This document shows positions 16,497-64,000 of a DNA stretch of 64,000 bases, piece after piece; within the stretch, counting starts at the first letter, position 1; each line of letters starts with the position of its first letter. This stretch comes from Psammoneis japonica (Eukaryota): the NCBI GenBank assembly GCA_008632985.1, contig QPGO01000016.1:716840-780839 (forward strand). The letters are read 5' to 3'. Position numbers and translations under genes: made by a program. The notes under the pieces are model-generated. The model saw nothing but the letters and a program-made list of their open reading frames with translations. It did not search any database and was not told the DNA's origin.

Positions 16497-17299
16497 CAGA
16501 CGGGATCCAAAAGTCGATTTTTGCAACGCGAAGCATTGTTGAAAGCCTCGAGCTTACCTTCAGACTCTCAGCATCCTCAAATTCACAACAATCATGAACT
16601 GGATAGCGCTTTGAAACGTTTGATTCGCCGTATTCGAACGCATCGTCACTCGTGGACGAGTCCGCGGTGCTCATCCTGCCATTCGATCCTACTGCAAAAT
16701 TCACGTAAAATTCTACGTAGTGTAACTTCCACGTGTCAGCAGGCTAAATAAATCGAAGAAATATTGTCGCTCAAAATTCGACGGTGAATAGCACTATCAT
16801 GGGGACTCGTTCTAGTTGATGAATAAGAAATTCATTCAATTTGGGAGCAGGAGCTTCGAGGTGTGGCCGGATTTTTTGTGAGCTTTTCGAATGAAAAATT
16901 AGGAAAAGCACAAAATCTACAGCGGAAGCAGTATTGTTCTACATACTTGATTTCTCGTTGAACTGGTACTCGCCAAAGATATCGCGCCAGCTGTTGCTGT
17001 AAGTACCTGTATGTACTACGTCTACGTAGGAAAGTACAGATTCCTGCGTTGGAACCACACGAGAGAAACCACACGTTTCGGCGCGCAAAATCCTTATATT
17101 TCTAACCATAAATTTGAATGAAGAATAAAGTAGTATCGAGAATCAGATGTGACACACACACACAGTGCGCTTTCGCGCCAAAATTTGAATTTCAATTTTG
17201 CAATCTCCCCTTGCCCCCTCTTGCAAGACGAGAAGTTAAGTTGTTAGATTACGTGACCAATGAGTCATTGTAAAGAGTGGCTCTTGTTGCAAAGAACAA

Positions 17300-30200: not shown

Positions 30201-31726
30201 AGGGGGCATGAGAAGCATTGTTGCACCACTTGTCTGGGGGGAGAGAGGAGCAGCATGTCAGTGACAAATGCAGCAAAAAGAGAACAATGAGAAGATGCAG
30301 GAAAGAGATGTGGTGGTTGCTTTGGAGACATTCTGCAAGAGCTTGTGCATGGACTCTGCAAGTTTCCAAACAAAAACATCCCTGAGAGGAGCCACATGTG
30401 AGTGCATGAGAGAGATTGACATGATGGCAATGGGGGGCACACAAAACATTTTGCAACACAAACTGATGCCAGCAAATGCAGGGTTGGTGAAAAAGGGTGA
30501 GGTGTGCTGGCCAACCAAAAACAAAGGCACAATGATGTGTGCAATGAACTTGAGCACAAACAGCCACCACTGCACAACAAGCAACATGAAAGCCCGCAAA
30601 CAACAGCACATGACAAATTTGAGATCACATCAACAAATTTTCTGTTGCAAAATTGTGCCAGACACATGGGCAGCAGAAAGGGTTGTGATGTGCTGGAGAG
30701 CACCAACAATCACAAAAAGATGGCACTGTGGAGATCAAGTTTTGGAAGGCATGGAAAACATCATGAGCTTGCACTCTCACACTTCTTGCACCACTTTCTG
30801 CCAGTCATTGTCAGAAAAATGCTTGGAAGAACATGATTGAGGGCTGAGTGTGAAGCTGAGCAAGCTTGCAATGGGAAGCAATGCAAGGAGTTTGCTCAGC
30901 TGGCACAACTGGCAAAAACAAGTTTTTTTTGTTTGTGTGTGCAGAAAATAAAAAAAGAGCTGAGGGAGGCTCACAACACACTGGGGGTGAGCTCCAGAGA
31001 CCAAGCACAGCACACCAGAAAAGGGAAACGAGCAAGAAGAAAGCATCGGAGGGTTTGATGAAAAAAGGGCTGGCCAGGTGTGGGGAGATGGGAAAGCAGC
31101 AGGCTGTGGCCAGAAAAAGAGGTGACAACAAAATTTGGTTGTGACAGTTCTGCCAATTGTTTGCAAGCTGCAGAAAGTTTGTCACCTTCAGGAGTGTAGA
31201 ACAGCTGCCAAAAATGACAATGACAGCAACAATTGCTTTGATGCCCCAGGGGCATGTGGGGGACAGGCCGCATCACAGTGCAGGCAGGGCCACACAGCAT
31301 GACACTGCTCCTCAGCATCTCAGAAACAATGAAACAAGAACAAATTAGAGTGCAGCACACACCAATGCAAGCCAGCGCAGCATGTGTTGTGGGGCATCAA
31401 GAGACTGAGCCCACACTGCTGCAAAAATGAGTTGTGTGCAGTGGCCGTGTGAGCATTGTTTTCTGCACAAACATGAGTGTGCTCAGGCAGCCAGGCTGTG
31501 GCCCAAATGATGTGGACAACCCAGCCATTTGGAAGAGAGAAGAGAGAAGAGATTGCCACATGGGAGCCTGTGGCACAACCCGTGTTGCTGTTTGTGACAG
31601 CATGTGCAGATGTGCAGGTCTCTGAATCAGCCAAAACACACTTGCTTCACTCTGGCAGCACAGAGAACCCCTGCATTGTTTGGGGGTGTGCCGGACTCAA
31701 AAAACATTGTCCCCCTCCGAGTGTTG

Positions 31727-34700
31727 GAATGTCAAGATGAGAGACCCAGATGTCACATCATGTCACCTGGATCAATTGAATGAGAAGGAGATGTTGACTC
31801 TGATGTGGTTGGCTGATGTGATCTTTTTCAATGAGATCACAACCATCAACACATTCTTTGCATGTGTTTCATTCTCTCACTCTTTGGAGTGAATCATTTG
31901 CTTTGCACAATTGTCAGTTGGCATCAAGAGGCACTTGTTGCTTTGGCAATTGTGCAGTTTGCACTGATGCCAAGGCAAACCACAGCCATTGTAGACTGCC
32001 GGGGCAAGCGCAACAAGCAGCTCAGGAAACCTTGCAGGATTCCCTTTTGGAGACATGGATTTGGTGCCAGTTCAACATTCACTCCAAAGAGTCAGGAGCG
32101 CTGCACTTGGCACTCATTTGCTTCAAGATTGCTGCCAACAAAAAGACATCAGAACACCTGCACAATGAGTGGCAGAGGAGGTGGCAGGATGAGCTGTCAA
32201 GGCCAAGGACAATGAAAAGGTGAAGGCCAGTGCCAAGAAACACTTTCAGTCTAAGATGAAGTTCTGTCCTTCATCACTGAACAGCTTTTCCTGCAATGTG
32301 ACATTTGAGGAAACCAAAGAAAAGATCACTCACTGCATGCAGAAGGAGTGCAGCCAAGGGTTGCACCTGGTGACATCCACAGAAGAAATGAACCACAAAG
32401 ACTTCATTGGACAGAGGCCCATGTGTGAAGGATCTAAGATTGTTCTGCCAGGTGTGAGCAACCCCAATTGCCAAGAACAACTGATGAAGAAGGCCAACAA
32501 AGAAAAAAGTGTGGATGGACACCCAACACAAGACAGACTTCAATGAATGGCACAAAAAGGCCAAAAAGTTCAAAGAGAACAAGACTGCTGCATTTGCCAA
32601 GCTCCTGGATGACTGCTGTTCAAAACAGATGAAACAAAGACTGCAAGAAGACCCCAACTTCAAGAACACCATCAGAGACAATCAAGCTGCACTGCTGAAA
32701 CCAATGCAAACCCTTGCACTTGACTCTGTGAGAGGTTGACACCCACTCCATGCACTCACAAAGGCATGGTGCACAAGACTTCTTAGAGAACCTGCCAATG
32801 ACAATTGGGGCAAGCCAGTCCATTGCATCAAGTGCCTGAGCCGAACAAGAAACGAAGTTGCTGTGCTGAGTGTGAAAGACCTCTGAATCATCAAGTGATG
32901 TGTGGACACATTGTTTGCAGTGCACCCTGATTTCAAGAGCCATGCCAGAGGTGCAATGACCATGGGTGCAAACACCCAAAGCAGCACTGAAGCTGAGTCA
33001 GCTGGAGTTGACAATGCAGTGACCATGACACCATGGACCAAGTTGTTCACAGAGCACCAAGGACACCCAATTGACACTGACATCCTGCATCAGGAAAACA
33101 AGAGTGCCATCATCCACTGGAGACAAATGGGTGTTGTCAAGAGAGCAAGAAAATGGTCTGGGCTGCTCAACATTGTTTTTTTGCAATGGATCAGATTGAG
33201 AAGGTCAACCCAGGCAGGGTGCAAGTCCAATGGATGACATGTTGGAGGACTTAATTGCCAAGCCACTGCAGGACAAGAAGCTCTGCAAGTTCAAGTGAGC
33301 CATTGTGGGCTGCCAAAGAGAAGGTGAGCATGAAGGGTGCGCAAGCTGTTTGTGATGTCAGACCAGAGTTTGGACACATGTGGGTGAAAGATCCCTGCAC
33401 CCAATGGTTGTGGTGAGCCAAGTGTTCAACAAACCACAAATTTGCTTTCAGATGAACCATGATGTCCATGAGAAGAGTGCCCACCCATCCTGATGATGAC
33501 CCAGGACACGTCAGTGAGGGGACAGAGCCACGTGACACTTGCTTGCAATGGTGGCGCCAAGACATTGTTGGGACAAGTTCAAGAGGCCAATTGAAATGTT
33601 GGAGGAAAGGAGAATGGAAACTGCAAATCAAGATTGCAAGATGGTGGTGGAAAAACACTGCAGACATGATGAGAATGGATTCATGCCAAGGCCTGTGGAT
33701 CCAATTGTCTTGCATGAAATGATCAACATGAGATCATTGATGTTGGAGTTGGAGAAGGATGGAAACAACATCTGGGACCATTTCAACAGTGTGAAAGATG
33801 AGTGCATGGAAGAGCTTGAAGACAAATGGCTGGCACAAGCTGTGGGCAGAGAGGCTTGAAACAGGGCCTGTTGTGTGCAAAGTCTGGAAGAAATGGTCTG
33901 GTGCAGCTCATCAATGTGTGTCTGCTGCTGCACCAATGATTTCCATGTTTGGTGAAGGAAGCACAGTGTTGCATGAGACAATGGAACATGCAAAGGCAGC
34001 ACACAAAGCCAAGGAGGATTGGCAAATCATTGGGACACACACCACAATCCAAGGTTTCAAATGTTGCAATGAGGGTGACAAGGTGGATTGTCCTGACAAG
34101 TGTGCAGTGAGGAGATGACAGCAGGGTTCAGAGGCAATGAGTTTGGCTTGCCCTTGACAAGAAAGACATTGACCTTGCATGGAAATGGTTGCTCACAAGG
34201 GGTTCACATGACTGAGTCATCAAAATGAAATGACACAATGGTGGTTTGGCAACAGACAACTGTGGACGAGTTGTTTGTGACACTTTGAAGTTGGTGTGGT
34301 TTTTCCATCAAAAAGTTGTTAAAGTGAAGCCTGTGCTGAAATGGGCGCTTGTTATGAAATGGAGTTTTGCCATCTGCAGCCCTGGAGAACCAATGAGTGG
34401 GTGTTGGATGCAATCAACAACGTGGGTCAATGCAGTGAGGGGAAGTGCAAGAGAAGGTTTGTCACGTTTGTGTGAAGAGTTTTGTTGATCAAGTTGACAA
34501 CACTGCAAATGAGTTTCATGTGATGCTTCACCTTGAGAGTTGTGGTCCCAACTGGGAATTCATGACATTGTGTGAACTGTTGGACAGCAACAACATTGAC
34601 ACTCCCATCGAATTAGAAGTGATTGTGCCAAGGGGCAATGCTGAGCCCAGTTGTGTGATTGTGAAACCAGCAGACATCAGATCATCAACATTTGAGTGGC

Positions 34701-35056
34701 GTGAGTGAGTCAGAATGTCAAGACAAGAGACCTGGATGTCATGCTGTGTGACCCAGATCAATTGAATGAGAAGGATGTTGATCATGGAGTGGTGTCGGCT
34801 GATGTGATCTTCTTTGATGAGATCACAACCGTGAGCACATTCTTTGCATGCATTTTGTTCTTCTCGCTCTCTGGAGTGAATCATTTGGTTTGCATGACTC
34901 CTGTCAGTTGGCATCAAGAGGCACCTGTCATTTTGGCAGTCGCGCAGTTTGCGCTGATGCCAAGGAAAGCCACAGCCATTGCAGACTGCCAAGACAAGTG
35001 TGACGAGCAACTCTCAGACAGGGGGGAGACATTGCAGGATTCCCTTTTGGAGACAT
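31727..35056 (+). repeat. Dispersed direct repeat: copy A 31727-32056, copy B 34713-35056
   Basis: Alignable from GAATGTCAAGA to GGATTCCCTTTTGGAGACAT; differences are dominated by transitions. Confidence 0.9.
32200..33320 (+). pseudogene. Internally deleted Ty1/Copia (CoDi-like) relic: gag fragment joined to RT/RNase H end
   Basis: gag-like FKENKTAAFAKLLDDCCSKQMKQRLQEDPNF..IRD; RNase H IIK*CVDTLFAVHPDFKSH, SSTEAE..GVD, WTKLF, ILHQENKSAI. Confidence 0.85.
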
Positions 35057-35682
35057 TGACTTGCCGGCTCAACACTGTGGCAATGGGCAGAAGAGATGGC
35101 TGCAAAAGAAGAGAAAAATGGGAGGATGGAAAAGTTTAACAAAACCCAGCTGGTGCAAGGTTGCTGTGTTTGATGAGATTGAGAACAGAGACAAAGTGTT
35201 CCGGCAGAGCAGGGTGGAAGAGGGCAAGCTGAGAAAAAGAGCTGGCCGCCAATTTTGCTGTGCTGAAAGAACTCTGTACGGTAGAGAGAGAGCGGGGTGG
35301 AAGAGGCTGGGGGTCTGCAGCGAGCCCAGCACTGGGGAGACAGTGGTCTGGCTGCAAGTTATTGTTCATCATCATGATTGACTCAAGGATTGACACCTCA
35401 GCCCCAAAAGTTTCAGTCGTGAGGTTGGGTTGCGGGAACAAAACGAAGCATTATCGTGCGTGCGTGACCACGTCACAAGAAAACACTCGGGACCGACGCA
35501 AGAAGCCATCGTGTCTTCTCTTCAGATCGCCTCATATTGTAACATCATCTCTTGGAAAACCCTCGACGCACATCACTGTACAGATATACTCGTTACAAAT
35601 CGCACTCCCTGGTGCCAGTCTTCCTTGCATACGAAAATTACGTTGATCATAGCTGTTGCTCTCTTCAGAAAGCGAAAATACG

Positions 35683-42695: not shown

Positions 42696-44713
42696 TTACA
42701 ATGCTTGCACAGATGATTTTTGCGTTTGACTTGGTGTGCCTTCGTTCGAAGGAGTTCCGCTCCGATTCCGAGACCGAATCCGCATACTTGTTGGAAAATC
42801 AGGCACGGGACCAGTCTTCAAAATGCTCGGTACATCCTCATATTGTAAAGTTTCATCTTTAATATCCACCTCCCAATCCAATACAAATTGGGCTAAAAAC
42901 ATGTGAACCTCAGCGAGTGCAACAGCTGCCCCGGGACAACGACGCAGCCCCTGCCCAAAGGGCTGTGCTAGGTACGGATGATCCAAACCCTCTTGAGCGG
43001 TACCTTTGCGTTCCCGGACTGCTTGTGGAAACCAACGGGTCGGATCATACGTCCAAATAGAACGATCCATACCGGTGGCAGGATCCAGCTGTCCATCATC
43101 ACTTGTAGAGTCCTTGTCGTCAGCGCCATGATTAGTCGTACATGTGTTTGTCTCATGTTGCATCTTCGGCAAGACTAGTCCTAAGTTGGGAGTCACCGAG
43201 TCAAACATGACGGCCGATCGGCGGGGAAGCTCCACACCATGCAAGGTGATTGGACACAAGGCATCCTTAATGAGAGAAACGGTTGCCGCGGGTGTCAACG
43301 GTGTGTTTCCCGAACAACTCCATGCAGCCACGGTGTGCGCATCTTGTCGAGTAGAACCGACGCTGGCGTGTCGGCAATACAAGAGCGGGAACCTTCTGAT
43401 GAAGTTTTAACCACAGACGAAATTTCGTCCAGCAGGGCGTTTTGCACGTCTTGATGAAAGGCGAGCTGCAGCAGGTTCCACGCGATCTTTCCGGCCGTGG
43501 TATCAATCGCTCCCAACAACAAGGCCAGGCACGAAAATGCAAGATCACGACGAGGCACTACTGCTACCTTCTGGCTGTTTCTATCCCCACTGTTTTTGTG
43601 GTCATAGTATGATTGCAAATTTCGAAGCACGTAGCAATCCTCTAAGGCGGATGGATCATCCTCCTGCTCACCATGTGCTACTAGTCGTTTTTCGAGTGCG
43701 TTGACTCGAGCTTGTAAGATTTCTACCGCCGCGTCCATTGCTTGATTACATTTGCGCATGAGGGGTGTTTGTATGCCAAACATCCGGGCTACACTTTGCC
43801 ACGGCGATCGTCGCAAGGCTTGTGCTTGATTCATAGCCTCCAATGTTGCCTCAAAGAGTTGGTCGGATGAGGAAGATGAAATGTTGTTGCCAAAGAGGAC
43901 GTGTTCAAACATGCCAAATGCCGCACGGTTGAGTTGAACCATGAAGTTCTCGGGAAGTTCACTCCATGCTGTCGAGTTTTCAGGTTGTTGTCGACTCGTT
44001 TTCACTGTGATTCGACGATTGGCCGCAACGGCACCCTTTAAAACCGCGTCGAGCGGTGGAACGGCCAAGGCCGCTTGCGTCGCTTGACGAGCTTCCCACC
44101 ATTGCGGACCTCGTGTAAAGATATTGGCAGCAGTCATTGCTTCTTGTCGAGAAAAGTATTCCCAAAAAGGCCACAATTGTTCGACCATTCCGACTGGATA
44201 GTCGTATTTGGCATTGTCCACGACCGCAGTAGGCTGCGATTGAACAATTTTGCGCATTTCGGTTGGATCTGTAATGACATACAAGTCAGGCTGGATGTCC
44301 TTGCCAAAGGTGGGCACACCAAGCCGGTAAAAATCACCAAAGCGCTGGTTCATGAGTGGATTAAACCGGTTGACAAACTTCATGTCGGCTGTAGGAGTGC
44401 CTGTAAGTGGTGGAAAGAAGGAACCCAAAACAGGCACAGTTGGGACAAGGCGGAGAATGGGCGTTACAGGACATGAAGCAGTTTGATCGTTATCTTCTTT
44501 CTCATCCTTAACCACAGCCTTCTTGGCAACGAAGAGAGGGGAGACTCCCAAACTGTCGCATCTCGTGGTTAGAAACGGTGTCTCCTGAAAGGCAAAAACA
44601 ACAATGGCCGAGTGCACGAGAAGGAGCAGGCTCAAGAGGTTTGCAGGGTTCTGATGCGACATGCTTCTTCCACGACGAGCCACACTGAAAGACGATTTCG
44701 TGTAGCGAAACAT
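42696..44713 (-). CDS. Cytochrome P450, probably plastid/ER targeted
   Basis: I-helix GAIDTT, K-helix ETHR, YDPTRW, heme motif PFGQGLRRCPG; 1-bp frameshift ~43298; signal ending VFA-F. Confidence 0.9.
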
Positions 44714-44998
44714 TAAATCTACTCTTTGTATCGCCTTGTCAATGCCTTTCGACTAGCAGCCGACAACATGCATACCGGTAGTCGCAGACTGAAGCAGACC
44801 GGAGAAAACGAAAAATGGTGCCGTCAGAACCTTGGGTGCTAAATATATATAGTGTCATGAATATAATTTTGTACATTCATTTTCTCCCTCCGAGCCACCG
44901 ATCCGCCACCAACCCACGACTCAGAGCCACGACCCACGACCGCCAAAAAATCGCCATGCGATGCACCATGCACCGCCACAACAGAGAACGATCTCACG

Positions 44999-45907
44999 AT
45001 GAACCTGTTCAATCTCCAAAAGATCTTTTTGGTAACTATTTTGGGGCTGACACTGTGTCTTTTGATGGTGTCAACAAAATATGCAAATTTTGATTCTGAA
45101 ACTACATCGTCGGCGCTTGCTCCTCATCAGTCCGAACAACCAAAAGAGTCCTGTCGCGAGTACTTCAACAAGCCCAACACGAAACCGATAAAGGAGATTC
45201 TTGTCGTTGGCGAACGTCATCACGGTACAAATTGGATCCGTGTCATTATAAACAAGAACGCGCCTCTTATCAAGTGCGACCTGAATACGTCGCATTGGAA
45301 GCACGGATTTTTCAATGCTACGTCGTTTCGGCTCAAGCAAAATCAACTCCTATGGATTGTCACGCGGGACGTGTTTGCCTGGCTTCCAAAAATGTATCGT
45401 GAAGTATACTGTGAAGAAGCTGATTCTAGTGAAGACTTGACATTGCCCGAGTTTATACGTAAAGAGTATGTATGCCCAGAGAAAAACGAACGTGCCAAGA
45501 ATCTCATTCAACTCCGCACCGCAAAGTACAAGAATTGGATCAAAGACTCGTCGTATTTTGAGAAACCACATTCGTGCTTGAGAACTCATATAAAATATGA
45601 AGATGTGTTGGAGAAAGGACAAGAAGAGACGGTTGGACAAGTGCTAAAGGACCACGGCATTCAAATGAATGAAACGCATTCCTTTCAACGAGTTGTGGGT
45701 CGCACAACCTTTATGGGTGAATCGAAACAGAAACCTCCCGATTTTTATCTGCCCAACCAATACACACTCACATGGTACACTATAGAAGACATTTGCTTCA
45801 TTCTGGATAATCTGGATTTGGAGTTTGAGAAGAACGTTTTGAACTATTCTTATGATTATGTGATGGAGTATCTGAACAATACCGCTTCAGCCATTCCGCA
45901 GTATTGA
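44999..45907 (+). CDS. Type II membrane sulfotransferase-like P-loop protein
   Basis: N-terminal TM, VVGERHHGTNW, WKHGF, RDVFAWL, IKYEDVL. Confidence 0.75.
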   Translation: MNLFNLQKIFLVTILGLTLCLLMVSTKYANFDSETTSSALAPHQSEQPKESCREYFNKPNTKPIKEILVVGERHHGTNWIRVIINKNAPLIKCDLNTSHWKHGFFNATSFRLKQNQLLWIVTRDVFAWLPKMYREVYCEEADSSEDLTLPEFIRKEYVCPEKNERAKNLIQLRTAKYKNWIKDSSYFEKPHSCLRTHIKYEDVLEKGQEETVGQVLKDHGIQMNETHSFQRVVGRTTFMGESKQKPPDFYLPNQYTLTWYTIEDICFILDNLDLEFEKNVLNYSYDYVMEYLNNTASAIPQY

Positions 45908-46569
45908 TACGATTTTGATCCCAGCCTTCCTGACCTGAAGCAATCGAGAGTGAAAAAGAGACGACTGCGAATCAGAGCCATTCTCTACGGAAGGTGGTCA
46001 AGCCGCTCCGGTTGAAAAGATCCAGGTCGGCAATTCACAAGTCTCCAAGTGCAGCACAGAAACTTTGTCTTTGCTGGTTTCCATGGTTTTCCATCCGCGT
46101 TACAGGATCTAAATACATTGTTTAGTTGTTGGCACTCTGCCAGCTGCTACCGTAGGGTATCCAACGTATGAGATTGGTGCAAGGATCTCTTCCAACCGAT
46201 CCGTTGGATAGAGAACCGCGATGGGAGGTAGATCTTTGACAGTGTGAATGTTCTTATGCACCAGAAAACGCCTTTCTAGTGTGCGTAGCTCGGCTATCTT
46301 CAAATCAACATACCTATGGGCAGATCCGCGTCTCGTGACGAGCAATGAGGCGAGCGTACCAACTTCAAATTATCTATGCGGGGTAGACGAAGCAGTAGCA
46401 TTTTTAGCATCGTACAGTATCATCAATGCGTGTGCTTGCAGGTAGACACCTAATTTTAACTCATAGCTACTAGCACAGTCTGTCAACATAGAGTTATGGT
46501 GATGATTATCTTTTCAAAGATTGGATGCTCCGAAAATATGAATGCGAGGTTGGACACTTACTTCCTCGC

Positions 46570-47900
46570 TCATCGCAAACGCAAGCCTTCCAATGCGATG
46601 GCCATGTCATTTTCAGTCTGAAAAGGGATTGGATCAATCTCATCATCATTGGTGCCACCAAATTGCAATTCAAAATCACGAATCTGAACCTTAAAAGCAG
46701 GTACTTTGGATAAAACGCTGCGAACCTGCTTTCCTCGTTTGCGGCCTTTCACGTCTGAATGCCAGGGGAATCCCTCCTCCTCTGGGACTTTCACAAGGAT
46801 GTCTGCTTCACATTGAAAGGAGTTTGCATCATGCTCAACCTGCACAATGAGAGCCCTTCCTCCTGCCTGAGTACCATCCACCTTGACTTTGTCATTGGAC
46901 CAATTGAAGTGCATTCCACAGCTGTCAAGGTCGCACCCATCAAATGCAGTCGTTTCTTCGTCCAGGATGCACACTGATTTCATGTTATCACGCCTGAAGA
47001 GAGTGACTCGGAGGCACGGTCCATCTCTGCGACAGGATGGAGCACCATTTGCAATGCATTCTATGATGCCATCTTCAACAACCACATGCTCATCACAGAA
47101 CCAACAGTCGTCCGACAAAGGGTCATCCCCGCTAAATCCTGTTGATGATGCATGGTGCGGATTTTTTACCGTGAATTCCACCCCGGTGTCAGGCGCATGT
47201 TGCCGCTGCCCTAACAGGCCTCCAACTTGTCAATCAACCCACAAGCAATTGTGCACAGTGTTGAAACGATGTCATTTGGCCTGTTTTTGCATCTGCATTG
47301 TTGATGGAAGATCGTCTTTTTTGTTTGTGCGGGGTTTTGCGTGCTTTGGCTCGACGGCAATGGTGGAGCGGCTCTGCAAATGACAAAATCGGATTGAAGG
47401 TCCTGTGTCATGGCACTGTCGAGCTCAGGGGATGACAGAGATTCAGCACATGGTGTGTTGTCATTGAAATGAGTGGTTTTGGGCAGTTGGCGGCTGAACT
47501 CTTGCCGTCATTGTCGCGAAGCATGGCATTCCACCACAACGTGAAGATCCATGTCGAAATTGAATCAGGTTGTGAGTGCAATTGTGTTTGTGCAGAAGCA
47601 GTGCTACGTCGCATGGCCCAAAACGAATGACACAGTGTTTCCCCGTGGACATTTGTCGCTTTTGCCGGAGGAAGCATTGCTGCAGCATGCAGCACGGCAC
47701 GGCACTGTGCCAAATAAAAATGCGGTGCACGCAGGTGTGGCACAAATGCCGGCACCGTACCCACAGAGTCGATCCCACATTGAGACCCACCTGAGATCAC
47801 CAGCCATTAAAATTTCTCTGTGCACATGCAATGCAACTTTTCATGCATGGACATGAAAGATCTCATTGAACTTGTCACAAAAAAATTCTTCCCTCTTTTG
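46570..47900 (-). pseudogene. TpA-depleted broken ORF of unknown origin
   Basis: 203-aa frame (46570-47181) with protein-like composition but no Tyr; further fragments upstream. Confidence 0.4.
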
Positions 47901-48277
47901 CAAATCCGGTTGGTTCATGAGTTTCAGCACGCTGACCAAAATGTCCGACGAGCCGATGCGGACAGGCAGGTGGTGATTTAAGACCCACGTAGAAATGTGC
48001 GTGATTTCAGCAGAGTGACAGATTGCACCTGTTTGCTGTTTGCTGTTTGCTGTTCACTGTTGGCTTCGATTTTTTTAGTTGAAGCGCTGACATCACAAAA
48101 TGGAATTTTGCTTTTTACGAATTCTCAACTCGCGTCCTGTTCCTTTTGTTTGATCAAACTTCAGTCATTTTGGTCAGATGCTCATTTTTAGATTCCTTCT
48201 TCTCGACATGAATGTGGTGTGCCATTTTCATCTCGCAGCTCATTCTGTGTTTCTTGTTCCACTCTCATCGAGCTGCA

Positions 48278-49867
48278 ATGGCGATGCTTGTCAATCCCTT
48301 TACAGGCAAGAGACGTTGCAAGCCCACACGATGGACAACACAGAAAAGGAGGAAGATGTTTGCAATTAATGTCAACGATCAACTGCTTTGTCGAGAGGCA
48401 ATGTCAGTGGCCATGTGTGCTCTGGAGAACACGCAAGAGCATCTAAACTCCACGATCATGTTGGTTGCACAAAGATTGCAGCTCCTCATCCAAAACAACA
48501 TGGAAATGTCACCCCAAATTGCTCAAATGGACCTTTGTCTGCAATTGTGTGTCGGCTCATGTCAAACTTGCATGCTGCATTTCTGCAACGCGGTGCAGGT
48601 TGATGCAGAGGTCGGAGACCTGCAAGACGATGAACTCGAAACTGCTCCGTACAAGGAAATCTGTCGATTCACAAGAATTGACAGCTTCCAAGATGACAAC
48701 GAGGCAAATGATTTTACCACCTTTTCCAAGGTTGAGCTCCAAGAAATGTTGGATCCACTGGATCTTCCAGTGATTGTTCATGTGCCCCATCCTGGGAACC
48801 AAGGCTGCTTGCATTTTCATCGCGAGAGCTTGCTGATCCATTCACTTGTCAAGTGCAAACGACGGGGGACACACAAAGATTTGGCCAACAATGGTGTCTC
48901 TGGGGAAGCGACGAAATGGTCATGTGGTTTCAAGCATTTCGTGCGGCATTTTGATTCGAGATGTGGACACCTGCTTGGACCAGACGGACTCCGACTGTGG
49001 ATGCCACACTTTCCGGATTTTGCCGAGGCGATTTGTCAGGAAGTTGGAAGAGATGTCACGTTGATTGACCCCGAGACGGAAGAGGAACATTTTTGTCCTG
49101 GAGTTCACTGTGAACCCGGCTCTTTTGTGGCACGCGGCTCCACCGATTGCAAAGACCATGCAGTTGCAACACCATGAACGGGCCCTGATGGAAACTGTGA
49201 GGGAAGCATGCGTTGACCGGGACATGATGAGGCTCAACGTTGTGTGCACACTGGGAAGTCTAAAAAGCATGCTCTGAAAATGTTCAATTTGTTCCTTCCA
49301 AATGGAATTCATGCGTGTGCTTGTGGGCCCATGTCATCCAGACCGTGAGTGCATCCGAGCTCCAATGTCATTCTGCTGCGTTGCGTTGCATGTGTCTAAA
49401 ACATTCTTGCCATTCCGTGTCACTCCAGGCATGACAGCAAAGCGCTTGCAAGGAGTCAAATTGACACTTTCCTTCATGTTGTTCAAGAGGCGTGCCCGGA
49501 ACTACAAGGAAAGGTGCGTGCTTTTTACGGAGACTCAGCCTTCAAAGGTGTCTGGTGCTGCATTCGTGCCAGACACGAGCCCACGAGATTAGTTCCTGTT
49601 CTTCCTCTTTGTCAAGTTCAAGAAAATGCAGCAATGAAGTGATGCCGTCAATCTGTGGAGTGGGGGTGTGCGGGTGAGGTCAACATCTGTGCACTGATGA
49701 ATCGCAAGGAACAGTTCAAGCTCGAACAAGACCACGATTTTGTCCTTGCGCAGCTTCGTGCAGGTCTTCTTCTCCACAATGTCCACACATGCGTGAATGG
49801 ATCACAGACAGGAAATGGACTGGGCTTGCGTGCCCCAGAGCTAGAAGACCACTTGCCAGCTGGATGA
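48278..49867 (+). pseudogene. DDE_Tnp_4 / HARBI1-like transposase, inactivated
   Basis: TDCK, QRCVHTGKSKKHALK..PNG..GP, HD, YGDSAF, N..MK*CRQSVEWG, HTCVNGSQ, LEDHL; several in-frame TGA. Confidence 0.85.
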
Positions 49868-50084
49868 ATTTTATAATTTTTAGAATAAAATAGATTCCAC
49901 TTTAGTTTTGACATGACAGATCTGACATGACACATCGTGTTAATGTGTCGAGCCTAACTGCACTCTCTAGAATCGATGCCTGTGCACACATGCACTGCAG
50001 GCAGGTTCACAGATGTACATCTGCATGGTGCTTTGTAGCTGCCACTCTCTAGAGTCTAATTGCCACCCCCGAATCACACTCTGT

Positions 50085-50950
50085 CTAGTTGCCGCCCATG
50101 TCATGCCACGTGTTCTCCAGTTCCTTGATTCTCCGGTCATGTCTCTCATGGTCAACATCATCTCCACAGTCCAGAGCATCTTTGCGTGCCTTGCAAAGGG
50201 AGGAAAGCATTGCAGCATTGTGCTTGTGTTTCCTGGACTCCTCCAAGGCATTGTTCTGGGAGGCAAGGAGTTCCATGGTCCTCTCAAACAAGTTGTTGAC
50301 ACGGGCAGAGTTGTCATGCATGTGCTCACCATCAACATCCAATGGAGACGTTTCCGATCCAGGTGCAGATGCTCGGGCCTCAGAAGGCGGAGTGGGGTTG
50401 CTCTTGCGTTTCTTGTCATTGGTGGTGGCGAATGGGCTGCTCTCTGGATCTCTGACAACAGGTGACTTGGAAGTGGCTGAGCCCATGAAATTGACGTTGC
50501 GCATCACTTGGTCGCTGAACTGCAAATTAGTTGAGTTGACAGTGCCAGCAGGGTGGAGGTTCCAACGCGCCTCGCTCGCTTTGTCCGTGTGCTCTTGTTG
50601 AATTTTCCTCGCACATTCTTCATCCTTGCCTGCTTGGGACTTCTTTTCAGTGTCTTGGCATTTCTCCCAAAGCACACATCCCCTTTTTTCATTGTTTGCA
50701 TCCACGAAGTCCTTCTGAGCAAACTCGTCCTCACACTTCTTTGCAAGGTGCGGCAGAATGCCTTTCTCCATCACGAACTTGCGTTTCGTCAAAGCAGTGC
50801 GATTCGCAGTTTTTGACACCTGCAACCCATGCTTTGCTGCAATGCCATTGCTGTCTGCACACAACAGACGGCCTGCTTTGTGCCAAGGATTCTGTGGATG
50901 CTTGGCATCGGATGCAATGGCACTGCAAGCGTGCACTGTTCGACAATCAC
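50085..50950 (-). pseudogene. Harbinger accessory (ORF2) protein relic
   Basis: Convergent with the transposase inside the IRs; charged, coiled-coil C-terminus; 0 Tyr in the 388-aa frame 50085-51251. Confidence 0.55.
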
Positions 50951-51773
50951 AAGCATGTCGGAAAGCAACTGCCGACAAGTTGGGGAGAAAAAAAGATGAG
51001 ACCAAAGTGGTTGGGAGCTGAAAAAATGACACACAAAGTGGAGAAGAGCAACGCCAGAAAACTTGCCTCCTCACATCTGCCATCTGAGACAAGCTTGTCT
51101 GTGTTTGGGAATCGTTGCGCTTTGCGAGGAGCAGCAGCGGCATTCGGCCGAGCGGGGGCGGCGGGTTGATCCCCGATTGATGCCAGCACACCGCCATCGA
51201 CCATGTGACGATGTGCAGCTGGTGCACTGGCACTCGAATGCATGCTGTCACTCATGGTTAGTGTGGAAGTGCTTGATGTCCTGTGTGCTGAAGGCAGGCG
51301 AGTGTGTGGTGTGTGGTGTTTTTCAGACAAGAGACGATGGCGCACCTCGAAGGAATCTCAAAGTGCAGCGAAGCAAGTGGCGAGCTGGTGCAAAAAATGC
51401 GTTCATTTCTACGGGGAGGAGCTGTTTGCTAAGTCGGCTCAAATCGGGCACGAACACAATTGACAACCTGGATCTATGGAAGCCATTGACCATCCTGCGT
51501 CACACCATTTTCTTGGACGTCATTTGCGTGACGCGCGTGTGACGTGGCGAGTGCAATGGCAAATGGCAAACAGCACAATCTGTCACTCTAGTGCTGGAGA
51601 TCAGACGCGCCCCTCAAGGGCCAAGGATTTTTCTGGGGGGTAAAAAGGGCGGCAATCGAATGCTCTCATCGTGCTGTTTCGAACGCGATGCCTCTCGACT
51701 TTTTTCGACCAACAGAAAATTCTACGCATTTTTGTACCACGCCCCACGCGGGTCTTAATTTGTGCCGGGTCTT

Positions 51774-52281
51774 ATAAGCCATGTGCACTAGTACAAAAAT
51801 CACGTAGAAATTTTACGTAGAAAAAATTATAAAAATTAGGGTTTGGGCCGATTTTTTTCTCGTGCTTCTACCGTGCTTTCTGCTCCACCGACGCCTCAAG
51901 GAATCGTTTTCCCCTGAAACCATTGACACTTTACATGATGACTTTTACATAAGTAACACGATTCTGTGCGTGAACACTTCAAAATTCCATTTTCAGAAAT
52001 TCGATCAACACTTCACTACGGTCCTACCACGGTAAACATTTTCCAATGATGGAATTTTGCCGAACGGTGGACATCGTCGCGTTTGTCATCAAAAAGTAAG
52101 TACGCAAAGTGTCAACCGTTATGACTGAAATCGATTCCTTGAGGTCGTGGCCTATTTTTCGCAAAGCACGGGAAAAGCACGACGAACAAAATATTCTACG
52201 CGAATTTTCTACGTGAGTTTTGTACCAGAAATCGGCCCAAACCCTGTTTTTCGGGACTCATAACCCCTGCACATGGCTTAT
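51774..52281. mobile_element. ~510-bp foldback MITE
   Basis: Terminal ATAAGCCATGTGCA / TGCACATGGCTTAT plus internal IR pairs (GTACAAAAATCACGTAGAAA, AGGGTTTGGGCCGATTT, CCTCAAGGAATCG, TTGACACTTT). Confidence 0.85.
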
Positions 52282-52443
52282 TTTGGGATCGACTCTCTAC
52301 CGGTAGTAGCTAGAGGCCCGTAGGAACCCCTACCGGTAGGAGCGAGAGGAATCAGGAGCCGACGGCAGACGGACGGCTGACGGTTTTGCCGGTACGGCAC
52401 GGTCCACGCGGTCGGTTGCCATTTTTTTTTTTGCCTCGCGACC

Positions 52444-53818
52444 ATGTCGGACGAAGAGGAAGAACGCGTTATTCATGACCTTACTAAAACAGCATCAGAC
52501 GATTCTAGTGATGACGATGATTCTTCTTCTGGAGAGGAAGAGAATCTGAAGAAGAACGAGAATAAAAAGGACGAGAAAAACAGTGACAGCGATGACGACG
52601 GCGCTGCCGCTCCATCAAACAAGAGCAAATCGTCTTCATCATCAAGCAACGACGACGATGACAGCAGCAGCAGTAGCAGCGACGAAGAGAACGAGGCGCC
52701 AGCAACTCATGTTGGTGGAAGTGAGAGAGACGAACCAGCTTTTGCTCTTTTATCTGGAGTACTAGAAACGGACCCGTCTCATACCGTCACTGTAGCCTTG
52801 ACGAGACTGCCTGCCACGCTGGGTAGATCTCACGGGACTAAAGATTCTCACTTTTTTGGAATTGGAGACTTGAAGGCTGTCAGTAGACAACAGGTACAGT
52901 TCAGTGTTCTCTAGAAATTTTAATGCATGATATTTATGCATTGATTTTGTCTGGAGACTTACATTTCCAATCCCCGTACACTCTCTCTTTTTTCGTTCTT
53001 ACGCCCTTACGCAGTGCGCTATTCACTATCAAAACCCATTTGGTGGTCGACTTGGGCAATTCAAGGATGATTCTGACGAGTTTTCTTACCAACCACCGCC
53101 AAAAAAATATTCAAAAGCATCTCTTCACGCAAACGGCGAGGATGAGCCGTCTAGCGGATATTATGTAGTAGAGTGCTTGGGAAAGAACCGCATCATTGTC
53201 AATGGCAAGAAAATAGAAAAGGGCGAATTTGCAGTGCTACGACATGGGACGCCCATTCGAATGAATGCGCTCTGTCTCTATTTCTTGCTACCAAACGATG
53301 CTCCAGAACGAACCATGGAGGTACCAAACCCGGAAGCGTCAAATAAACAAACTCGAAAGCGCAAGACTGACAATGACGACGGTCCGTCAAAGAAACCAGC
53401 CATAACAAAAAAGAAATCTGGAACCGGAGCCGTGGTGGCAGAACTGGAAACGCTGTCTCTGGCTACTCTCATGGAACGCATGGACGAAGCCATCCGTTCG
53501 GATGTGTGGGAACGAAAGCATCAAATGATTGGTAGCGCCATTGCGTTGCATGCCGTCAAGGCTGCGGCTCAAGCCAAACCCATTATAGACTTGGCCAAGG
53601 AGGATGAAAACCACGGAGTGGCGAGAGCTGAAATTATGGCATGGATCAAGGAGAACCCAACCTTTTCAGAGTGGGTGTCACAAATGAACAGCAGGATGGA
53701 ACCAAAGAGTTACCAGACAAACATCAACAAGGCTCTTCTGAAGGCTGGTTTTGTTCGCACCGGGACTGTTGGTCGACACGTCAAGTGGGTTCTTCCTCCT
53801 ACAACGTCGAGCGCCTGA
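52444..53818 (+). CDS. FHA-domain nuclear protein
   Basis: Acidic/Ser-rich N-terminus; FHA motifs LGRS, VSRQQ, LGKNRIIVNG; intron 52894-53014 keeps frame; NLS-like RKRK. Confidence 0.88.
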
Positions 53819-54199
53819 GTTGGATCGCCACAATTTTGTACCTCGGACTACTTTTCGGCATGAAGAGTGTATAACATGAAGAAGGACGCTCGTTGGCATC
53901 TATCCATATATGCATGATGTGTTATAATAGACCTTACGCCCAGATGGCGTGAAAAGAAAAGGACGATTTCGGTTCTTGGACTGCTTACCACCAGCTTGCA
54001 ACATTTCTTATTGTAGCTCATAGCTTTAGAAATACAAACATCTCTGTCTAGCTGGAGAGAGCCGTCATCGAATCACGGCTGCTCGGAATCAAACTGTTTT
54101 TTGGTTTCCTTGTTGGCTCTGCTTGTTGATTGCTTTCACTGATTCAAAACTCATTGTCGCCATGAACGACATTCCGAACGCCCACTCATTCGGAAATCG

Positions 54200-55330
54200 T
54201 CAAATCATGAGCCTGTTTTAAACCCCCAAGCACAAGGTGGGAAACCATTGTTGCACTGTCAAAGGCATTTGTTGATAGAGACTGGAGTGCATGAAACCAG
54301 CAGCAATGTTCAGTTGTGACGGATTGAAAAGTTCAATTTTTTAGCAGCACACACAGTGTTCCACAGTTTCATTTTCCAACAAGGCTCACTCCTCTTTCTT
54401 CTCTCATGAGTCAGATCAAGGCTGTGTGACCCATTCAATGCCAACAACACTCTGGTCCAAATCTCTGGCCATCTCTGCCAAAAGCTTGTCTTTGGTTGTG
54501 GCACTGCTTTGAGAGACCATCATCGTGAGTGTGGCTTTCATTGTTCATCATGCCACCCACTCAGTCTTGACTCACAAAAGTGACCCCCTTCCCATGGCAC
54601 CAGTTCCTCACACTTGAGCCAAGCTTTGCTGCTTTTTAACAAAACAGTGCTTGCCTGTCTTGAGTGCAGCCACTTCAAGTTGAAACTCAGAGAAGAAACT
54701 CTGTCTTCAACACCCCAATGTTGCTTTGTTGAATGTCCAGCCTGGATGATGCCTGTCATCGGAACAAGTGAACCCTGCTTTCTCAAAAAATCAAACACCT
54801 GCAAAGTGCTGCCATCTTTCTGTTTTCCCTAAGAGCAAGGAAAACAGTGCTGAGAGAAACAATGCACAGAGCAGCCGCAACTCTGTTTTCCACTCTTGAA
54901 GCATCCACCCAAATCTTGCGCACGGCGCTGGAACATTGTGATGTGAGGGGCTTGCTCTGACGCACTTTGACCACACAGCCAGCATGAGGCTGACTGGCAA
55001 CAATTTAACTTCCATTTCTTTTTGCAGCTTTTTGCCACAATTTCTTGCCTTGCACGTGCGATGTGACATTTCAACAAAGAAAAGAAGGCTGCTCAAGCCA
55101 CTTTTCTCTTCTGCCTCCTCTTGTTGTGTGCTCGCCATTTTGTTGCTTTTTGGCACAACAGCTGGACATTGGACAAAAAGTCAACTTTGAAACGGCTCTT
55201 TCCCTGGACAGAAGCAACACGGTAAGCCGTTGCGCCGATGAACCAGAAAAGCAATCGCAAAGCCGCAGTGGCTCCGACAGCGCACGCATGCATCATGGGC
55301 GTCCATCCATCAGTGCATGCACCGCAGTGC
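54200..55330. mobile_element. Degenerate TpA-depleted repeat relic, unassigned
   Basis: Composition only (TA nearly absent, TG/CA rich). Confidence 0.45.
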
Positions 55331-55837
55331 TGGCTGTAAGTCAGTTCCTCATTCGATCGTCAATCGTCCTCAACTTGAACCCGATGGAGGGCAGAGGCTT
55401 TTACCCTTAATTAAACACGACGTGTAACTTGCAGTTTACACCTAACGAAAAATTGATTACTTAAGGACCGCGTGTCAGAAAGGTGTCAAGACATCATGCC
55501 AGCGTCGTGTAGAAAGCTACAGTGTCCAAGATCGTAGTCCCGTTGCGCGATGAGTCATCATTGTGATTCAATCAGCGATGAATAAATGTGAATGATTCAT
55601 TCGCGCACTTATTCAGACCGACTTCAGAACCTTGGAGCGAACGAACGAAAAACAAACCAATCACATTGTTGCCTTTCATCCCAACAACAAACAGCGGCTG
55701 TGCCACCGCCAATCACTCTGAGAGTTCCTTGCAACGACGATACTGCTACTTTTGAACCAATCAGTATGCATACGGTAAGTGAAATCGCTGCAACACTGTG
55801 ACTGATTCGCCAGCGAAACCAGTGTCAATCGGTATTT

Positions 55838-60719: not shown

Positions 60720-62350
60720 GAGTGCAACAAACTCAAGAGCAACAGGGACCTGAGGCAATTATAGTTCGCAATCCTCTTCAACAAGGAAGGTGTCACGCAG
60801 GGCGATCCATTGCGCATGCGTGCGGGCCAGGCCTTCTCCCACCAGTCCGCGAGATGAACAAGCATTTCCAGCAGCATTCACTCCTTGGCATGCGCCGACG
60901 ACTCTGCCACAGCGAGGAAATTTCATGTCTTACGAAACTTTTTACTGACTCTACGAGCCGAAGGACCCAAGCATGGTTGCCATCCCACTGGCAACTCCAA
61001 GAACATTCTAGCAGCCTCAGAGCACAATCTGGAGAATGCTGAGAAATGCTTTTTGAAGACCTCGGCTTCACCATCAAGACTGGCAGCCACCACCTTGTGG
61101 GTTTCACAGGAGAGCGGGAAGCCTTCGACCAATGGGCAGCAGAGAATGCCTCACTAAGACAGTGATTCAACACCAACAGGCAGCTAAAGCACAAGTGGCA
61201 GCATGTCCAATGAGTGGCAAAGGATTGAGGCAATTTGTTTGCCAGCATGGAACATGCGATCAAGCACCAATTCTTGCAGGCACTGTCAGGAGAGACTTTG
61301 GCAGATGACAACCTGAGATTGGCCCTGCCCACCCTCCTGCACAAATTTGCAGGACTTTCCACACAATGTTCAACTGAGTCTGCAAAATGCAAAACTTTGA
61401 AGTGAGTGCTCTCGCATGCTCACACTTGATTGTTGACTCACTTCGTGCCCCCCTTCCCCCTTGCAATTCACCACAGCTGTCCACAAGGACACAGCATGCA
61501 AGGTGAAGCCAGCAGCAGCTGAAAAGAAAGTCAAAAAGCATGGCAATGCACTCAAAACTGTTCCCCCCTGCACTCTGTTCAACATTTGAGCCTGCATGGC
61601 AAGGTGCAGCACCAGAGCTGGTGCTTGGCGCAATCAGCACAAAACTTTTGCATCACAAATTTTGGGACACCTGTTTCCCATGCTGTGGCAAAGATCCTCC
61701 TGGCCTGCCCAATGCTTGCAGTGGATGCAGCTGGAACTTTTTCATTCAATGTGCCCTTCAGTGCAAGACAGAGGAAAGATCAGCGAGTCGCATCTTGACA
61801 TGATGAGATCTGTGATGATCTCAGCTCCTGCATGTGCACACATTGTCACCAAGCCATCCACAGTGCACAACAAACCTCTTGTCAATCCTGCTGGTCACTT
61901 TTCCAGAAGCCCTCAACTGCCAATGATCAGCCCAAGCAGCTTGCCAAGCCCAGCCACCAATTTCAACAAGTCAGGAGATGGTGGTCATGGGGAGATCTTT
62001 CAGCCAAAAGCTTGTGGGGATGGAGATGACAGATGTGATCATGGGTGCAGAAGTGGCTGACATGCTGGCATCCAAAACCCCCAAAACAAGTCTTGCTGGA
62101 CCATGAAATGGAGAAGAAGTGCAAGTGTCTCAAGCCAGCATGTCTTGGGCAATGCCGTCATTTGTTGCCTGTTGTTGTGTGCCACACAATGGTCTGGTGA
62201 TTGGCAAGGAGGCTCAAGAAGCCATCTCACTTCAGATGGCTGGGGAAAGATTTTTGAGTGAGTGGAAGAAGCTCCGCTTGGAAGCATGAGGCTTTGTCAA
62301 CATGCAACAAGATTCAGCATTGCAATGGCGAGGGCAAATGACCCATGACT
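60720..62350 (+). mobile_element. 5'-truncated non-LTR retrotransposon relic (CRE-like RT, Zn motif, restriction-like endonuclease)
   Basis: KEGVTQGDPL (~60783), CADD (60891), GPKHGCHP, CSGC...ALQCKT, HDEI, GDLSAKSLW. Confidence 0.8.
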
Positions 62351-63630
62351 CTGCTTGGAGGGTGGTGCTGGTCCATCCCTGTGCCAATGCTGCTGGACCA
62401 AGACAGCACATCATCCAAGGGCACACACTGAGGCTCAATGCTGTTGAGTGGGCTCAAGACACTGCCCCTTGACCAGAAGATTAACTTGGTGCCAGCTGCA
62501 ACTCCAAAATTCCATGCACAAATTTTGCTCAAATGTGCATGCAAAAAACTCAGCTCTGCATTCCTGCGAATCCCCAGCCACACAAAAACCCCTTTTGCCA
62601 GTTGTTTTTGCCACAGTGTGTGCTTGTCACTTTGTCATGATGATGACTGCAGCAACAGTGGTGACAAAGGTTCAGGGCACCGCCACTTTTTTGTTGTCAT
62701 TGGTTTGCCACATCTGGCCTGTTCCAGCCCCAGGTGATGAGCAGTCCATCGCGCGAGAGGCCAATTTTCTGTGCAGTTTGGCACATTGAACTCCTTCAAA
62801 TTTGATCGTTTTGAAAATCAAAAGATGAACGCACACAAAAAAACACAAGTTTTGTGTGCACTCACCCTTCCATTTGGGAAAAAACCGATTTTGAAGGAGT
62901 TTGTTTGTTGCACTGAATGCAAAAATGATGGGAATCGAACCTGTGCGCATCACCTGGTGAGCTGGAACAGGCCATCTGACAGAAAATTGTTCAAGAGAGA
63001 GTGAAATGACAACAATGGATGCTGCGACCAAGACCACCAACCCAAAATGCACATGTTTTGATTCAACTGCAGAGTGAACCCATCCAACCAGCAGCCAAGG
63101 ACACCTGCAGCATGCCTCGCTGCTGGACAACACGGCGAGACCGTGCACAAGCCTCTTGCACGTGGCAACGTGGCATTGTCAACACGCACCTGGGAAGCAC
63201 GACCACAGGAGGGCGTGGCTCTGGGTCTCAGGCAATTCCAGAAGGATGCCAAGAGAGCATCCGTGTGAAGCACACTGGCCCGTCGTCTGGCCCACGATGG
63301 CAGCGTGATTCCACACGATGACATCACTCGTGCACAGCGCATGATGGCTTGATTCGCACGATCCACAATGCGAATGCACGATCGATTTGATGCGATCCAA
63401 ATGCAAACGAATGGGGATTTGGCAAGATTCCCCATTCGCACGATCCCATTTTCTCTGCTCTAAACCAGCTCACAATTTCCACAACGACAAAGTCGCAACA
63501 CATCTTCTTTTCAGCGCCTGGCACATGCACAGGGCACAGCAATGTCACTCCCGCATGTTGTGCGAGGTGACGAAATCTGCAGAAACGAAACTGTGAAATG
63601 TTGGCAGGACCGACAAATCTTAAAACGACC

Positions 63631-64000
63631 ATGAAGAAGTGGATTGAGCCGCCGACTCCGTTCGCACGGCGGGAGAAGAAAGAGCTGCAGCAAGGCGAGT
63701 GCCAGACGTTCAAGCTGCGCAACAACCCCACTGATCCGGATGGTCCAATGCATGAGATGGGCATTCTGCACCTTTCCACAGCTACATGCGAGACACTCCC
63801 AATCTTTCTGCGCAACGTGGATCGCGTGCACGAAGGACAAAACATCACACTGGGCCAGCGAAATTTGCCCTCATGCGTGACCTGCTGCAGGGTGATGCTC
63901 TGACATCATTTGACAATGCCACTGACAAGCAGGCATCTCAAACCAATGCCACGCACGCAGCATGCATCGCGAAGCTAAAGGAAAGCATCTTCCCACATGG
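63631..64000 (+). mobile_element. Start of a Ty3/Gypsy-like gag ORF relic (runs off window)
   Basis: PPTPFAR.EKKEL...TFKLRNNPTDPD, GQNIT, LLQGDAL..F, IFP, recognised from diatom LTR-element gag sequences. Confidence 0.65.

Follow-up and report, generated by a model that had tools for sequence, protein, structure and literature searches.

The 64,000-nt (64-kb) stretch of Psammoneis japonica contig QPGO01000016.1 that was analyzed here (positions 716,840 to 780,839 of the forward strand; hereafter the window, numbered from its first letter) contains at 48012-51589 a dead PIF/Harbinger-type cut-and-paste DNA transposon, nested in an older multi-copy repeat. The element carries a transposase gene and, on the opposite strand, a second long open reading frame (ORF2), and the dinucleotide TpA is depleted both there and in the surrounding host repeat (Table 1). 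An earlier note on this DNA had singled out the element as one that has lost TpA but kept CpG, and had proposed that the two losses are decoupled. The comparisons described below show that TpA was lost by mutation, in the direction TA to TG/CA and symmetrically on the two strands, and that, across the window, the loss of TpA is invariably more advanced than that of CpG. Dinucleotide frequencies are given throughout as ratios of observed to expected counts (o/e).

A Nested PIF/Harbinger-Type Transposon

The outermost 14 nt of the element are fully complementary (48012-48025 with 51576-51589, 100%), and the pairing is extended by 17 nt at 88% complementarity (48034-48050 with 51559-51575). These terminal inverted repeats coincide exactly with the joint found in an empty site. 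Contigs from other copies of the host repeat, in which the element is absent, connect 48008 to 51590 (three contigs), 47996 to 51594, or 47953 to 51650; the three types of joint leave out 3581-3696 nt, which indicates that about 3.58 kb was inserted into the older repeat. The words flanking the element, AGC and AGT, agree at two of three letters, and the empty site has a single AGT. In length these words suit the 3-bp target-site duplication of PIF/Harbinger elements, which is usually TWA, although that word was not seen at these ends. Read depth over the host repeat is 200-590, compared to a single-copy depth of 62.7 in run X1.

The transposase is encoded in a single frame free of frameshifts and interrupted by three TGA codons and an intron, a pattern that fits point substitution without insertions or deletions. 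Removal of the 84-nt intron brings back the GP..S.R..D motif of related proteins. A phmmer search with the transposase returned 232 relatives at E<=1e-3 (best 1.4e-48, identity 33-38%), and 14 of the 15 best full-length relatives that were scanned matched DDE_Tnp_4 (PF13359) at E<=0.01, 10 of them above the 24.8-bit cut-off. The catalytic motifs DC, YGD, and IEW are invariant in six relatives and, in an unscored comparison by eye, read TDCKD, YGDS, and VEWG in the window. The window transposase itself gave no Pfam match even at E<=1; the models miss it because its tyrosines have been turned into cysteine and histidine. A word-indexed homolog search with a piece of the transposase and with ORF2 found none (2144 candidates for ORF2). 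When 150 transposase relatives were compared to the window by tblastn, all 149 segments fell at 48.0-50.0 kb, indicating that the window holds no further Harbinger remnants. Taken together, the inverted repeats, the empty-site joints, the retained intron, and the DDE_Tnp_4 relatives identify a DNA transposon without an RNA intermediate, in agreement with the earlier assignment. Harbinger-like elements are known from diatoms (PMC2806351).

ORF2 is more difficult to assign. It had no Pfam match above threshold, with only sub-threshold hits to RGS and C2c1_Nuc-II (E 0.03-0.09), and no usable match in the ESM atlas. The second open reading frame of Harbinger elements typically encodes a Myb/SANT-like DNA-binding protein. 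Because the stop codons TAA and TAG cannot occur where TA is absent, a long open frame in such sequence is no evidence of a gene, and many overlapping frames were listed.

Table 1. Features of the nested element, its host repeat, and the TpA-poor blocks of the window
Feature	Position	Strand	TA o/e	CG o/e	Remarks
Putative left target-site duplication, AGC	48009..48011	.			joint 48008->51590 of the empty site; two ambiguous letters there
5' terminal inverted repeat	48012..48050	+			pairs with 51559-51589
Transposase exon 1	48278..49344	+	0.09	0.66	in-frame TGA at 49175-49177 and 49214-49216
Intron, GTGAGT...CAG	49345..49428	+	0.21		84 nt; 1 TA; present in the DNA copy
Transposase exon 2	49429..49867	+	0.15		in-frame TGA at 49640-49642; stop 49865-49867
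Spacer between convergent stop codons	49868..50084	.	0.73	0.42	217 nt; 13 TA
ORF2, open frame of 388 aa	50085..51251	-	0.03	0.61	2 TA; 0 Tyr
3' terminal inverted repeat	51559..51589	-			pairs with 48012-48050
Putative right target-site duplication, AGT	51590..51592	.			
Older multi-copy host repeat, left part	46600..48008	.	0.15	0.67	ratios over 46751-48008
Same host repeat, right remainder	51593..51700	.			ends where the MITE-like element starts; bin 51349-51682 has a depth of 342
TpA-poor block	17251-18950		0.06	0.38	
TpA-poor block	28101-35500		0.05	0.19	
TpA-poor block	46751-51700		0.15	0.67	
TpA-poor block	54051-55400		0.09	0.49	
TpA-poor block	60951-63950		0.04	0.41	

Extent and Mutational Origin of the TpA Loss

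The 45-kb non-repeat part of the window served as background, with a TA density of 0.040 per nt and o/e values of 0.58 for TA, 1.00 for CG, and 1.17-1.18 for TG and CA; the window as a whole is ~52% A+T, with a TA o/e of 0.44. TA is nearly missing from five blocks, where TG and CA rise to 1.55-1.90. The summed ratios of TA, CG, TG, and CA amount to 3.77-3.99 per block, compared to 3.93 in the background, so that the gain of TG and CA equals the loss of TA and CG. The G+C content of the blocks is 0.47-0.51, versus 0.474 in the background. Block edges are sharp, about 100 nt wide. On the left side of the domain that surrounds the element, TA per 100 nt declines stepwise (11, 3, 1) near 46.4-46.6 kb, at an edge that matches a jump in read depth, and on the right side it climbs from 1 to 7 near 51.7 kb. 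As a separate observation, host sequence outside the blocks is also low in TA while its CG is at expectation.

Over 48009-51589, 33 TA remain, compared to a mean of 227.6 (standard deviation 11.3, minimum 193) in 1000 mononucleotide shuffles. The segment 50530-51258, which had been described by eye as devoid of TA and rich in CG, indeed holds 0 TA and 35 CG in 729 nt. It is part of a 731-nt TA-free interval (50528-51259), one of six longer than 700 nt in the window; the chance of such a run at the background TA density is 1.9e-13.

Could the missing sites be an assembly or base-calling artifact at modified bases? At three positions in the element (49476, 50364, and 50550) the X1 contigs uniformly have CG in place of the CA or TG of the window, at 51476 a contig has TG in place of TA, and there is an extra C after 50932, all of which would be in keeping with such errors. 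However, X1 contigs contain 93% of 1036 31-mers sampled from 44001-54000, while hardly any 31-mer of the element would persist if it had some 100 TA more, and a 491-nt X1 contig covers 47857-48347, including the left junction, with zero differences. An artifact on the scale of the depletion is barely conceivable on these grounds, with the qualification that run X1 is possibly the sample behind the assembly of the window, in which case its support is not independent. The five disagreements may themselves stem from assembly mistakes at modified positions, from heterozygosity, or from differences that arose between cultures.

The depletion has left its mark on the encoded proteins. The ORF2 frame contains 14 Cys and 18 His next to its lack of Tyr, and the 321-aa frame at 48212-49177(+) has one Tyr, both Tyr counts being those reported before. 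In the transposase, two of 501 residues are Tyr (0.4%), compared to a median of 4.7% and a minimum of 2.3% among homologs of at least 300 aa; Cys (5.8% versus a median of 2.4%) and His (5.2% versus 3.4%) are enriched. An alignment with 47 relatives shows that only one of nine Tyr-conserved columns is retained, the remainder being occupied by His (three), Cys (two), Leu, Phe, and Arg; the altered columns include 224 (H), 229 (C), 324 (H), 436 (C), and 497 (H). Other conserved columns are retained in 91 of 132 cases (Fisher p = 9e-4). The short strings that the earlier note had quoted for expected tyrosine positions are present and lie on Tyr-conserved columns of the relatives. His and Cys are the single-transition products of TAY codons. 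Codon-wise polarization against distant relatives was also tried and set aside: 38 of 49 changed conserved columns need transversions or several steps, so that the approach is uninformative beyond the Tyr columns.

The pattern extends beyond coding sequence and beyond one strand. Each of the two genes is enriched in both TG and CA, and TA is also scarce in the intron and in the inverted-repeat regions (o/e 0.15-0.21), which indicates that the process acts on DNA rather than on one transcript. These properties bear on a route through RNA, in which an ADAR- or ADAT-like enzyme would edit UA in transcripts that are then reverse transcribed into the genome. Adenosine deaminases that act on RNA typically favor a 5' U, as cited in the Discussion of a preprint on Bigelowiella natans (Mettrop et al. 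2026, bioRxiv 10.64898/2026.01.13.699255), and to this extent the dinucleotide would be the expected one. Yet the element has kept its inverted repeats, a target duplication, and its intron; the intron and the untranscribed ends are depleted; and both strands are affected within each gene. An origin by RNA editing is hardly credible in view of this combination.

Selection against TA, exerted for instance by UpA-cleaving RNases or a TA-cutting nuclease, would likewise produce a deficit without requiring directed mutation, and the under-representation of TA in the host background could be cited in its favor. It would not account for the loss of catalytic-core Tyr residues or the presence of stop codons, for the depletion of the intron and the non-coding ends, or for the TA o/e of 0.37-0.84 at related loci, and such selection is very improbable as the source of the deficit.

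The earlier note had also allowed for a family whose consensus is itself free of Tyr and TpA. Judged from sequence, the deep transposase family is neither: the homologs have the Tyr content given above, and all 26 metagenome relatives show a TA o/e in the stated range, a sample in which heavily mutated copies are under-represented, given that one of the search patterns demanded a Tyr/Phe-containing motif. A metagenome scan that used the window protein itself found no relative. Among 22 distinct metagenome loci, lower TA goes along with more Cys+His (rho -0.73, p 1e-4), and locus L008 occupies an intermediate position, with a TA o/e of 0.38, 1.2% Tyr, 7.5% Cys, and no stop. Four public predicted proteins among the relatives (P0057, P0072, P0074, and P0132) contain little or no Tyr, while Cys+His amounts to 12-15%.

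TpA Loss Runs Ahead of CpG Loss

With a CpG o/e of 0.66, against 1.00 in the background, the element has kept CpG relative to TpA but not in absolute terms, and the initial description holds only in the former sense. The relation between the two losses was followed in 500-nt bins across the window. TA o/e falls below 0.25 in 35 of 128 bins, and 14 of these 35 have a CG o/e of at least 0.5, whereas the reverse combination, CG o/e below 0.5 with TA o/e of at least 0.25, occurs in none of the 128. TpA is thus consistently ahead, and this part of the proposed decoupling stands. Within the low-TA bins, however, the two ratios are correlated (rho 0.59, p 2e-4), and "decoupled" is too strong a term within this genome.

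Different degrees of loss are found in adjoining sequence. At 63001-64000, where the depletion runs past the window end, TA o/e is 0.04-0.12 and CG o/e 0.82; in the neighboring interval 61001-62500 both TpA and CpG have been lost. It is plausible that the 28-35 kb block represents an older stage, as had been suggested. Among 22 distinct relatives from other organisms, TA and CpG are uncorrelated (rho 0.00), and metagenome loci L025 and L026, which have identical values, show the opposite decoupling, with a CpG o/e of 0.08 and normal TA. The results fit a fast, near-finished TpA process combined with a slower CpG process that is still segregating.

The 28-35 kb block also contains a pair of direct repeats (31727-32077 and 34713-35074) that may be the long terminal repeats (LTRs) of a degraded element. 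The two copies diverge by 19.7% over 330 aligned nt. Their differences include 11 TG-versus-CA double differences, nine of CG versus TG/CA, and one of TA versus CA, and they share neither a CG nor a TA. Use of this LTR-like pair as a clock was dropped, as TG/CA double differences are not assignable to ancestral TA or CG without a model.

A Proposed TpA-Specific Transition Process and the Observations Against It

The TA sites that survive in the five TpA-poor blocks are not a random sample. With the spacer excluded (n=81, compared to n=1827 in the background), ATAC/GTAT and ATAT are both absent among survivors, versus 14.3% and 6.7% of background sites, whereas CTAA/TTAG makes up 30% (7% in the background) and TTAA 21% (4%). 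At the left end of the element, the difference between the AGC and AGT duplications corresponds to T>C at a TpA that arose only upon insertion, where the duplication meets the initial A of the inverted repeat; this post-insertion event is single and anecdotal.

The favored model is that of a TpA-specific transition process that converted TpA to TpG/CpA on both strands, nearly to saturation, across a domain of ~46.6-51.7 kb, while a slower second process took about one third of the CpG. We regard this model as probable, although by a degree that leaves considerable room for doubt. In mechanistic terms, a deaminase-type activity would convert the adenine of 5'-TA within marked domains of mobile-element DNA, either in the duplex or while the strands are transiently separated; the enzyme would most likely be a DNA adenine deaminase, as proposed for B. 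natans. Replication would then read the product as G, fixing TG or CA. The process may be aimed at mobile or repeated DNA via chromatin marks, small RNA, or homology, and methylated CpG in the same domains would decay more slowly, by deamination of 5-methylcytosine (5mC).

In support of the model, variation among copies is concentrated in the dinucleotides concerned. When the window was compared to other contigs, 420 of 513 differing places were transitions, and the 26 best-supported differences, taken from 40 of 514 differing places, were examined. Twenty-one of the 26 fall within the TA/CG/TG/CA network: in 12 the window has TG/CA where CG is found elsewhere, five are TA versus TG/CA, and two TG-versus-CA double differences account for four rows. 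Several observations weigh against the model. In only two of the 26 rows does the paralog have TA where the window has TG. Moreover, the nested element and its host repeat are alike in both ratios (TA/CG o/e 0.15/0.66 and 0.15/0.67), and on these two points a large part of the loss could be older than the copy itself. The 217-nt spacer has escaped entirely, contrary to what would be expected of a process acting uniformly on DNA. Immediately to the right of the domain, a neighbor resembling a miniature inverted-repeat transposable element (MITE; ~51683-52290, with inverted ends, many internal length variants, and a depth of 4400-4650 that corresponds to ~70 copies) is undepleted, with a TA o/e of 0.69 and a CG o/e of 1.3; copy number alone is therefore no trigger. 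Finally, the hypermutated regions of B. natans are described without CpG mutation, and the CpG loss seen here requires a second process.

The first of these points would be expected if most TpA had disappeared from the family's source lineage by the time of insertion, and if the locus mainly recorded later CpG decay; the family consensus in this genome would then already be poor in TpA and Tyr. Under such an inherited state, an excess of CG over TA among the paralogous alternatives (12 rows compared to two) and equal levels in host repeat and nested element would follow directly, and Tyr-free predicted relatives, the four listed above, exist elsewhere. On the other hand, three in-frame stops and changes in eight of nine conserved Tyr columns argue against a working source transposase, and the T>C in the target duplication affects a TpA made by the junction. 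Copies also differ from one another by TA versus TG/CA (five rows) and by TG-versus-CA double differences. For the LTR-like pair, the 11 double differences in 330 nt would need ~32 ancestral CpG (o/e ~1.5) if none came from TA. An inherited state as the main explanation is considered rather unlikely, although part of the TpA loss may have been inherited from the source copy.

The signature would look the same if the chemistry were different. A thymine in TpA could be modified, for example to 5-hydroxymethyluracil by a TET/JBP-type enzyme, and subsequently mispaired or misrepaired to give T>C. Since TpA is its own complement, a T>C change on one strand is equivalent to A>G on the other, and no feature of the window tells the two chemistries apart. 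Dinoflagellates carry 5-hydroxymethyluracil preferentially at TpA. The authors of the B. natans study read their case as adenine deamination, likewise without proof. Thymine modification appears quite improbable here, less so than an artifact, selection, or RNA editing. With regard to the targeting of the TpA-specific process, the spared spacer and the untouched MITE-like neighbor point, as a matter of speculation, to homology or to RNA from the coding parts rather than to repetitiveness.

Other Features of the Window

The remaining TpA-poor blocks yielded no recognizable families. Among 71 open frames from these blocks and their flanks, Pfam identified none, a PDB sequence search with three of the frames returned no matches, and an Rfam scan of the entire window gave none. 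No RNA run was listed as containing the stretch around the element, and no X2 contig covers sequence within it, neither of which is evidence on its expression.

Host genes were also noted outside the blocks. A histone deacetylase gene at 13116-14552 has diatoms as its best named relatives (Bacillariaceae sp., 74%; Phaeodactylum, 69%, partial; Cyclotella, 64%); by this one protein the genome is judged, in broad terms, to be diatom-like. On the minus strand at 13116-16316, the histone deacetylase frame is adjoined by an ankyrin-repeat frame; many relatives are single fused proteins with PF00850 and Ank, and the two frames probably form one gene, judging from these fusions. At 52445-53999, an X2 contig aligns as two pieces and skips 52891-53011 in a splice-like manner. 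Run X2 may thus hold transcript-like contigs, and the host gene at this position may have a 121-nt intron.

Comparison with Known Systems

Repeat-induced point mutation (RIP) of ascomycete fungi resembles the present case in that it produces only transitions, on both strands, in sharp domains of repeated or mobile DNA, and no insertions or deletions. RIP changes C to T mainly at CpA, however, and so creates TpA. Here TpA is destroyed (o/e 0.04-0.15), G+C is slightly raised, and a ~70-copy neighbor is untouched.

Decay of 5mC shares with the locus the conversion of CpG to TpG/CpA and its restriction to repeat blocks, and diatom transposons carry DNMT5a-dependent cytosine methylation (PMC9998398). 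It cannot remove TpA, and CpG loss lags behind TpA loss in the window. The editing of retroelements by ADAR and APOBEC enzymes in animals also leaves clustered, deaminase-type transitions fixed in mobile copies, and ADAR prefers a 5' U. Those enzymes act on RNA or on reverse-transcription intermediates, whereas the element studied here has no RNA intermediate and is affected on both strands and in its intron. Its footprint on a cut-and-paste DNA transposon would exclude explanations by RNA editing.

The closest parallel is B. natans. In mutation-accumulation lines of this organism, two integrated viral regions acquired 231 mutations, 230 of them A>G or T>C changes that always affected TpA, at a rate of ~6e-7 per site per generation (10.64898/2026.01.13.699255). 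The same preprint describes genome-wide clusters that are poor in TpA and rich in CpA+TpG, an enrichment of DDE endonuclease and reverse transcriptase domains among TpA-poor coding sequences, and an ADAT2 homolog as candidate enzyme. General and diatom-specific literature searches found TpA hypermutation only in this preprint, and none for diatoms.

Both systems are restricted to TpA to TpG/CpA changes that are strand-symmetric and leave low TpA with high CpA+TpG, and both are confined to blocks of foreign or mobile DNA, the block studied here consisting of repeats as judged by read depth. They differ in several respects. The rate in B. natans was measured in mutation-accumulation lines, while the process here is known from its sequence footprint alone. 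Depletion is near saturation here, at an o/e of 0.04-0.15, compared to a rho of 0.45 for the giant-virus insert of B. natans. The mutations in B. natans include almost no other class, whereas CpG is also lost here (o/e 0.19-0.67, and CG versus TG/CA in 12 of the 26 copy differences). The window shows a flanking-base preference and a spared spacer; the words "flanking," "context," "CpG," and "diatom" occur zero times in the main text of the B. natans preprint. Instead of an integrated viral region, the process has affected a classical DNA transposon with two ORFs that sits within another repeat, and the host is diatom-like rather than a chlorarachniophyte.

A broader possibility, put forward tentatively and held to be less probable than the TpA-specific process itself, is that a diatom genome defense edits DNA adenine at 5'-TA in mobile elements and so mirrors RIP with A-to-G changes. 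Bigelowiella would share this system, which would thus be old or widespread among stramenopile, alveolate, and rhizarian (SAR) protists. The flanking-base preference, with TAT/TAC-type sites erased and TTAA/CTAA sites half spared, and the spared spacer together suggest that it would be guided by homology or by RNA derived from the coding parts, while 5mC decay would follow independently as a further layer. The flanking-base preference, the sharp domain edges, and the spared 217-nt spacer provide handles on such machinery. More generally, TpA loss and CpG loss represent separable layers of transposon decay, which bears on how copies are dated and annotated. A natural process of this type, by which TA in mobile DNA is rewritten as TG or CA, was not measured until 2026, and then in a single chlorarachniophyte; the footprint described here would add another major lineage of algae, for which good genetic tools exist.

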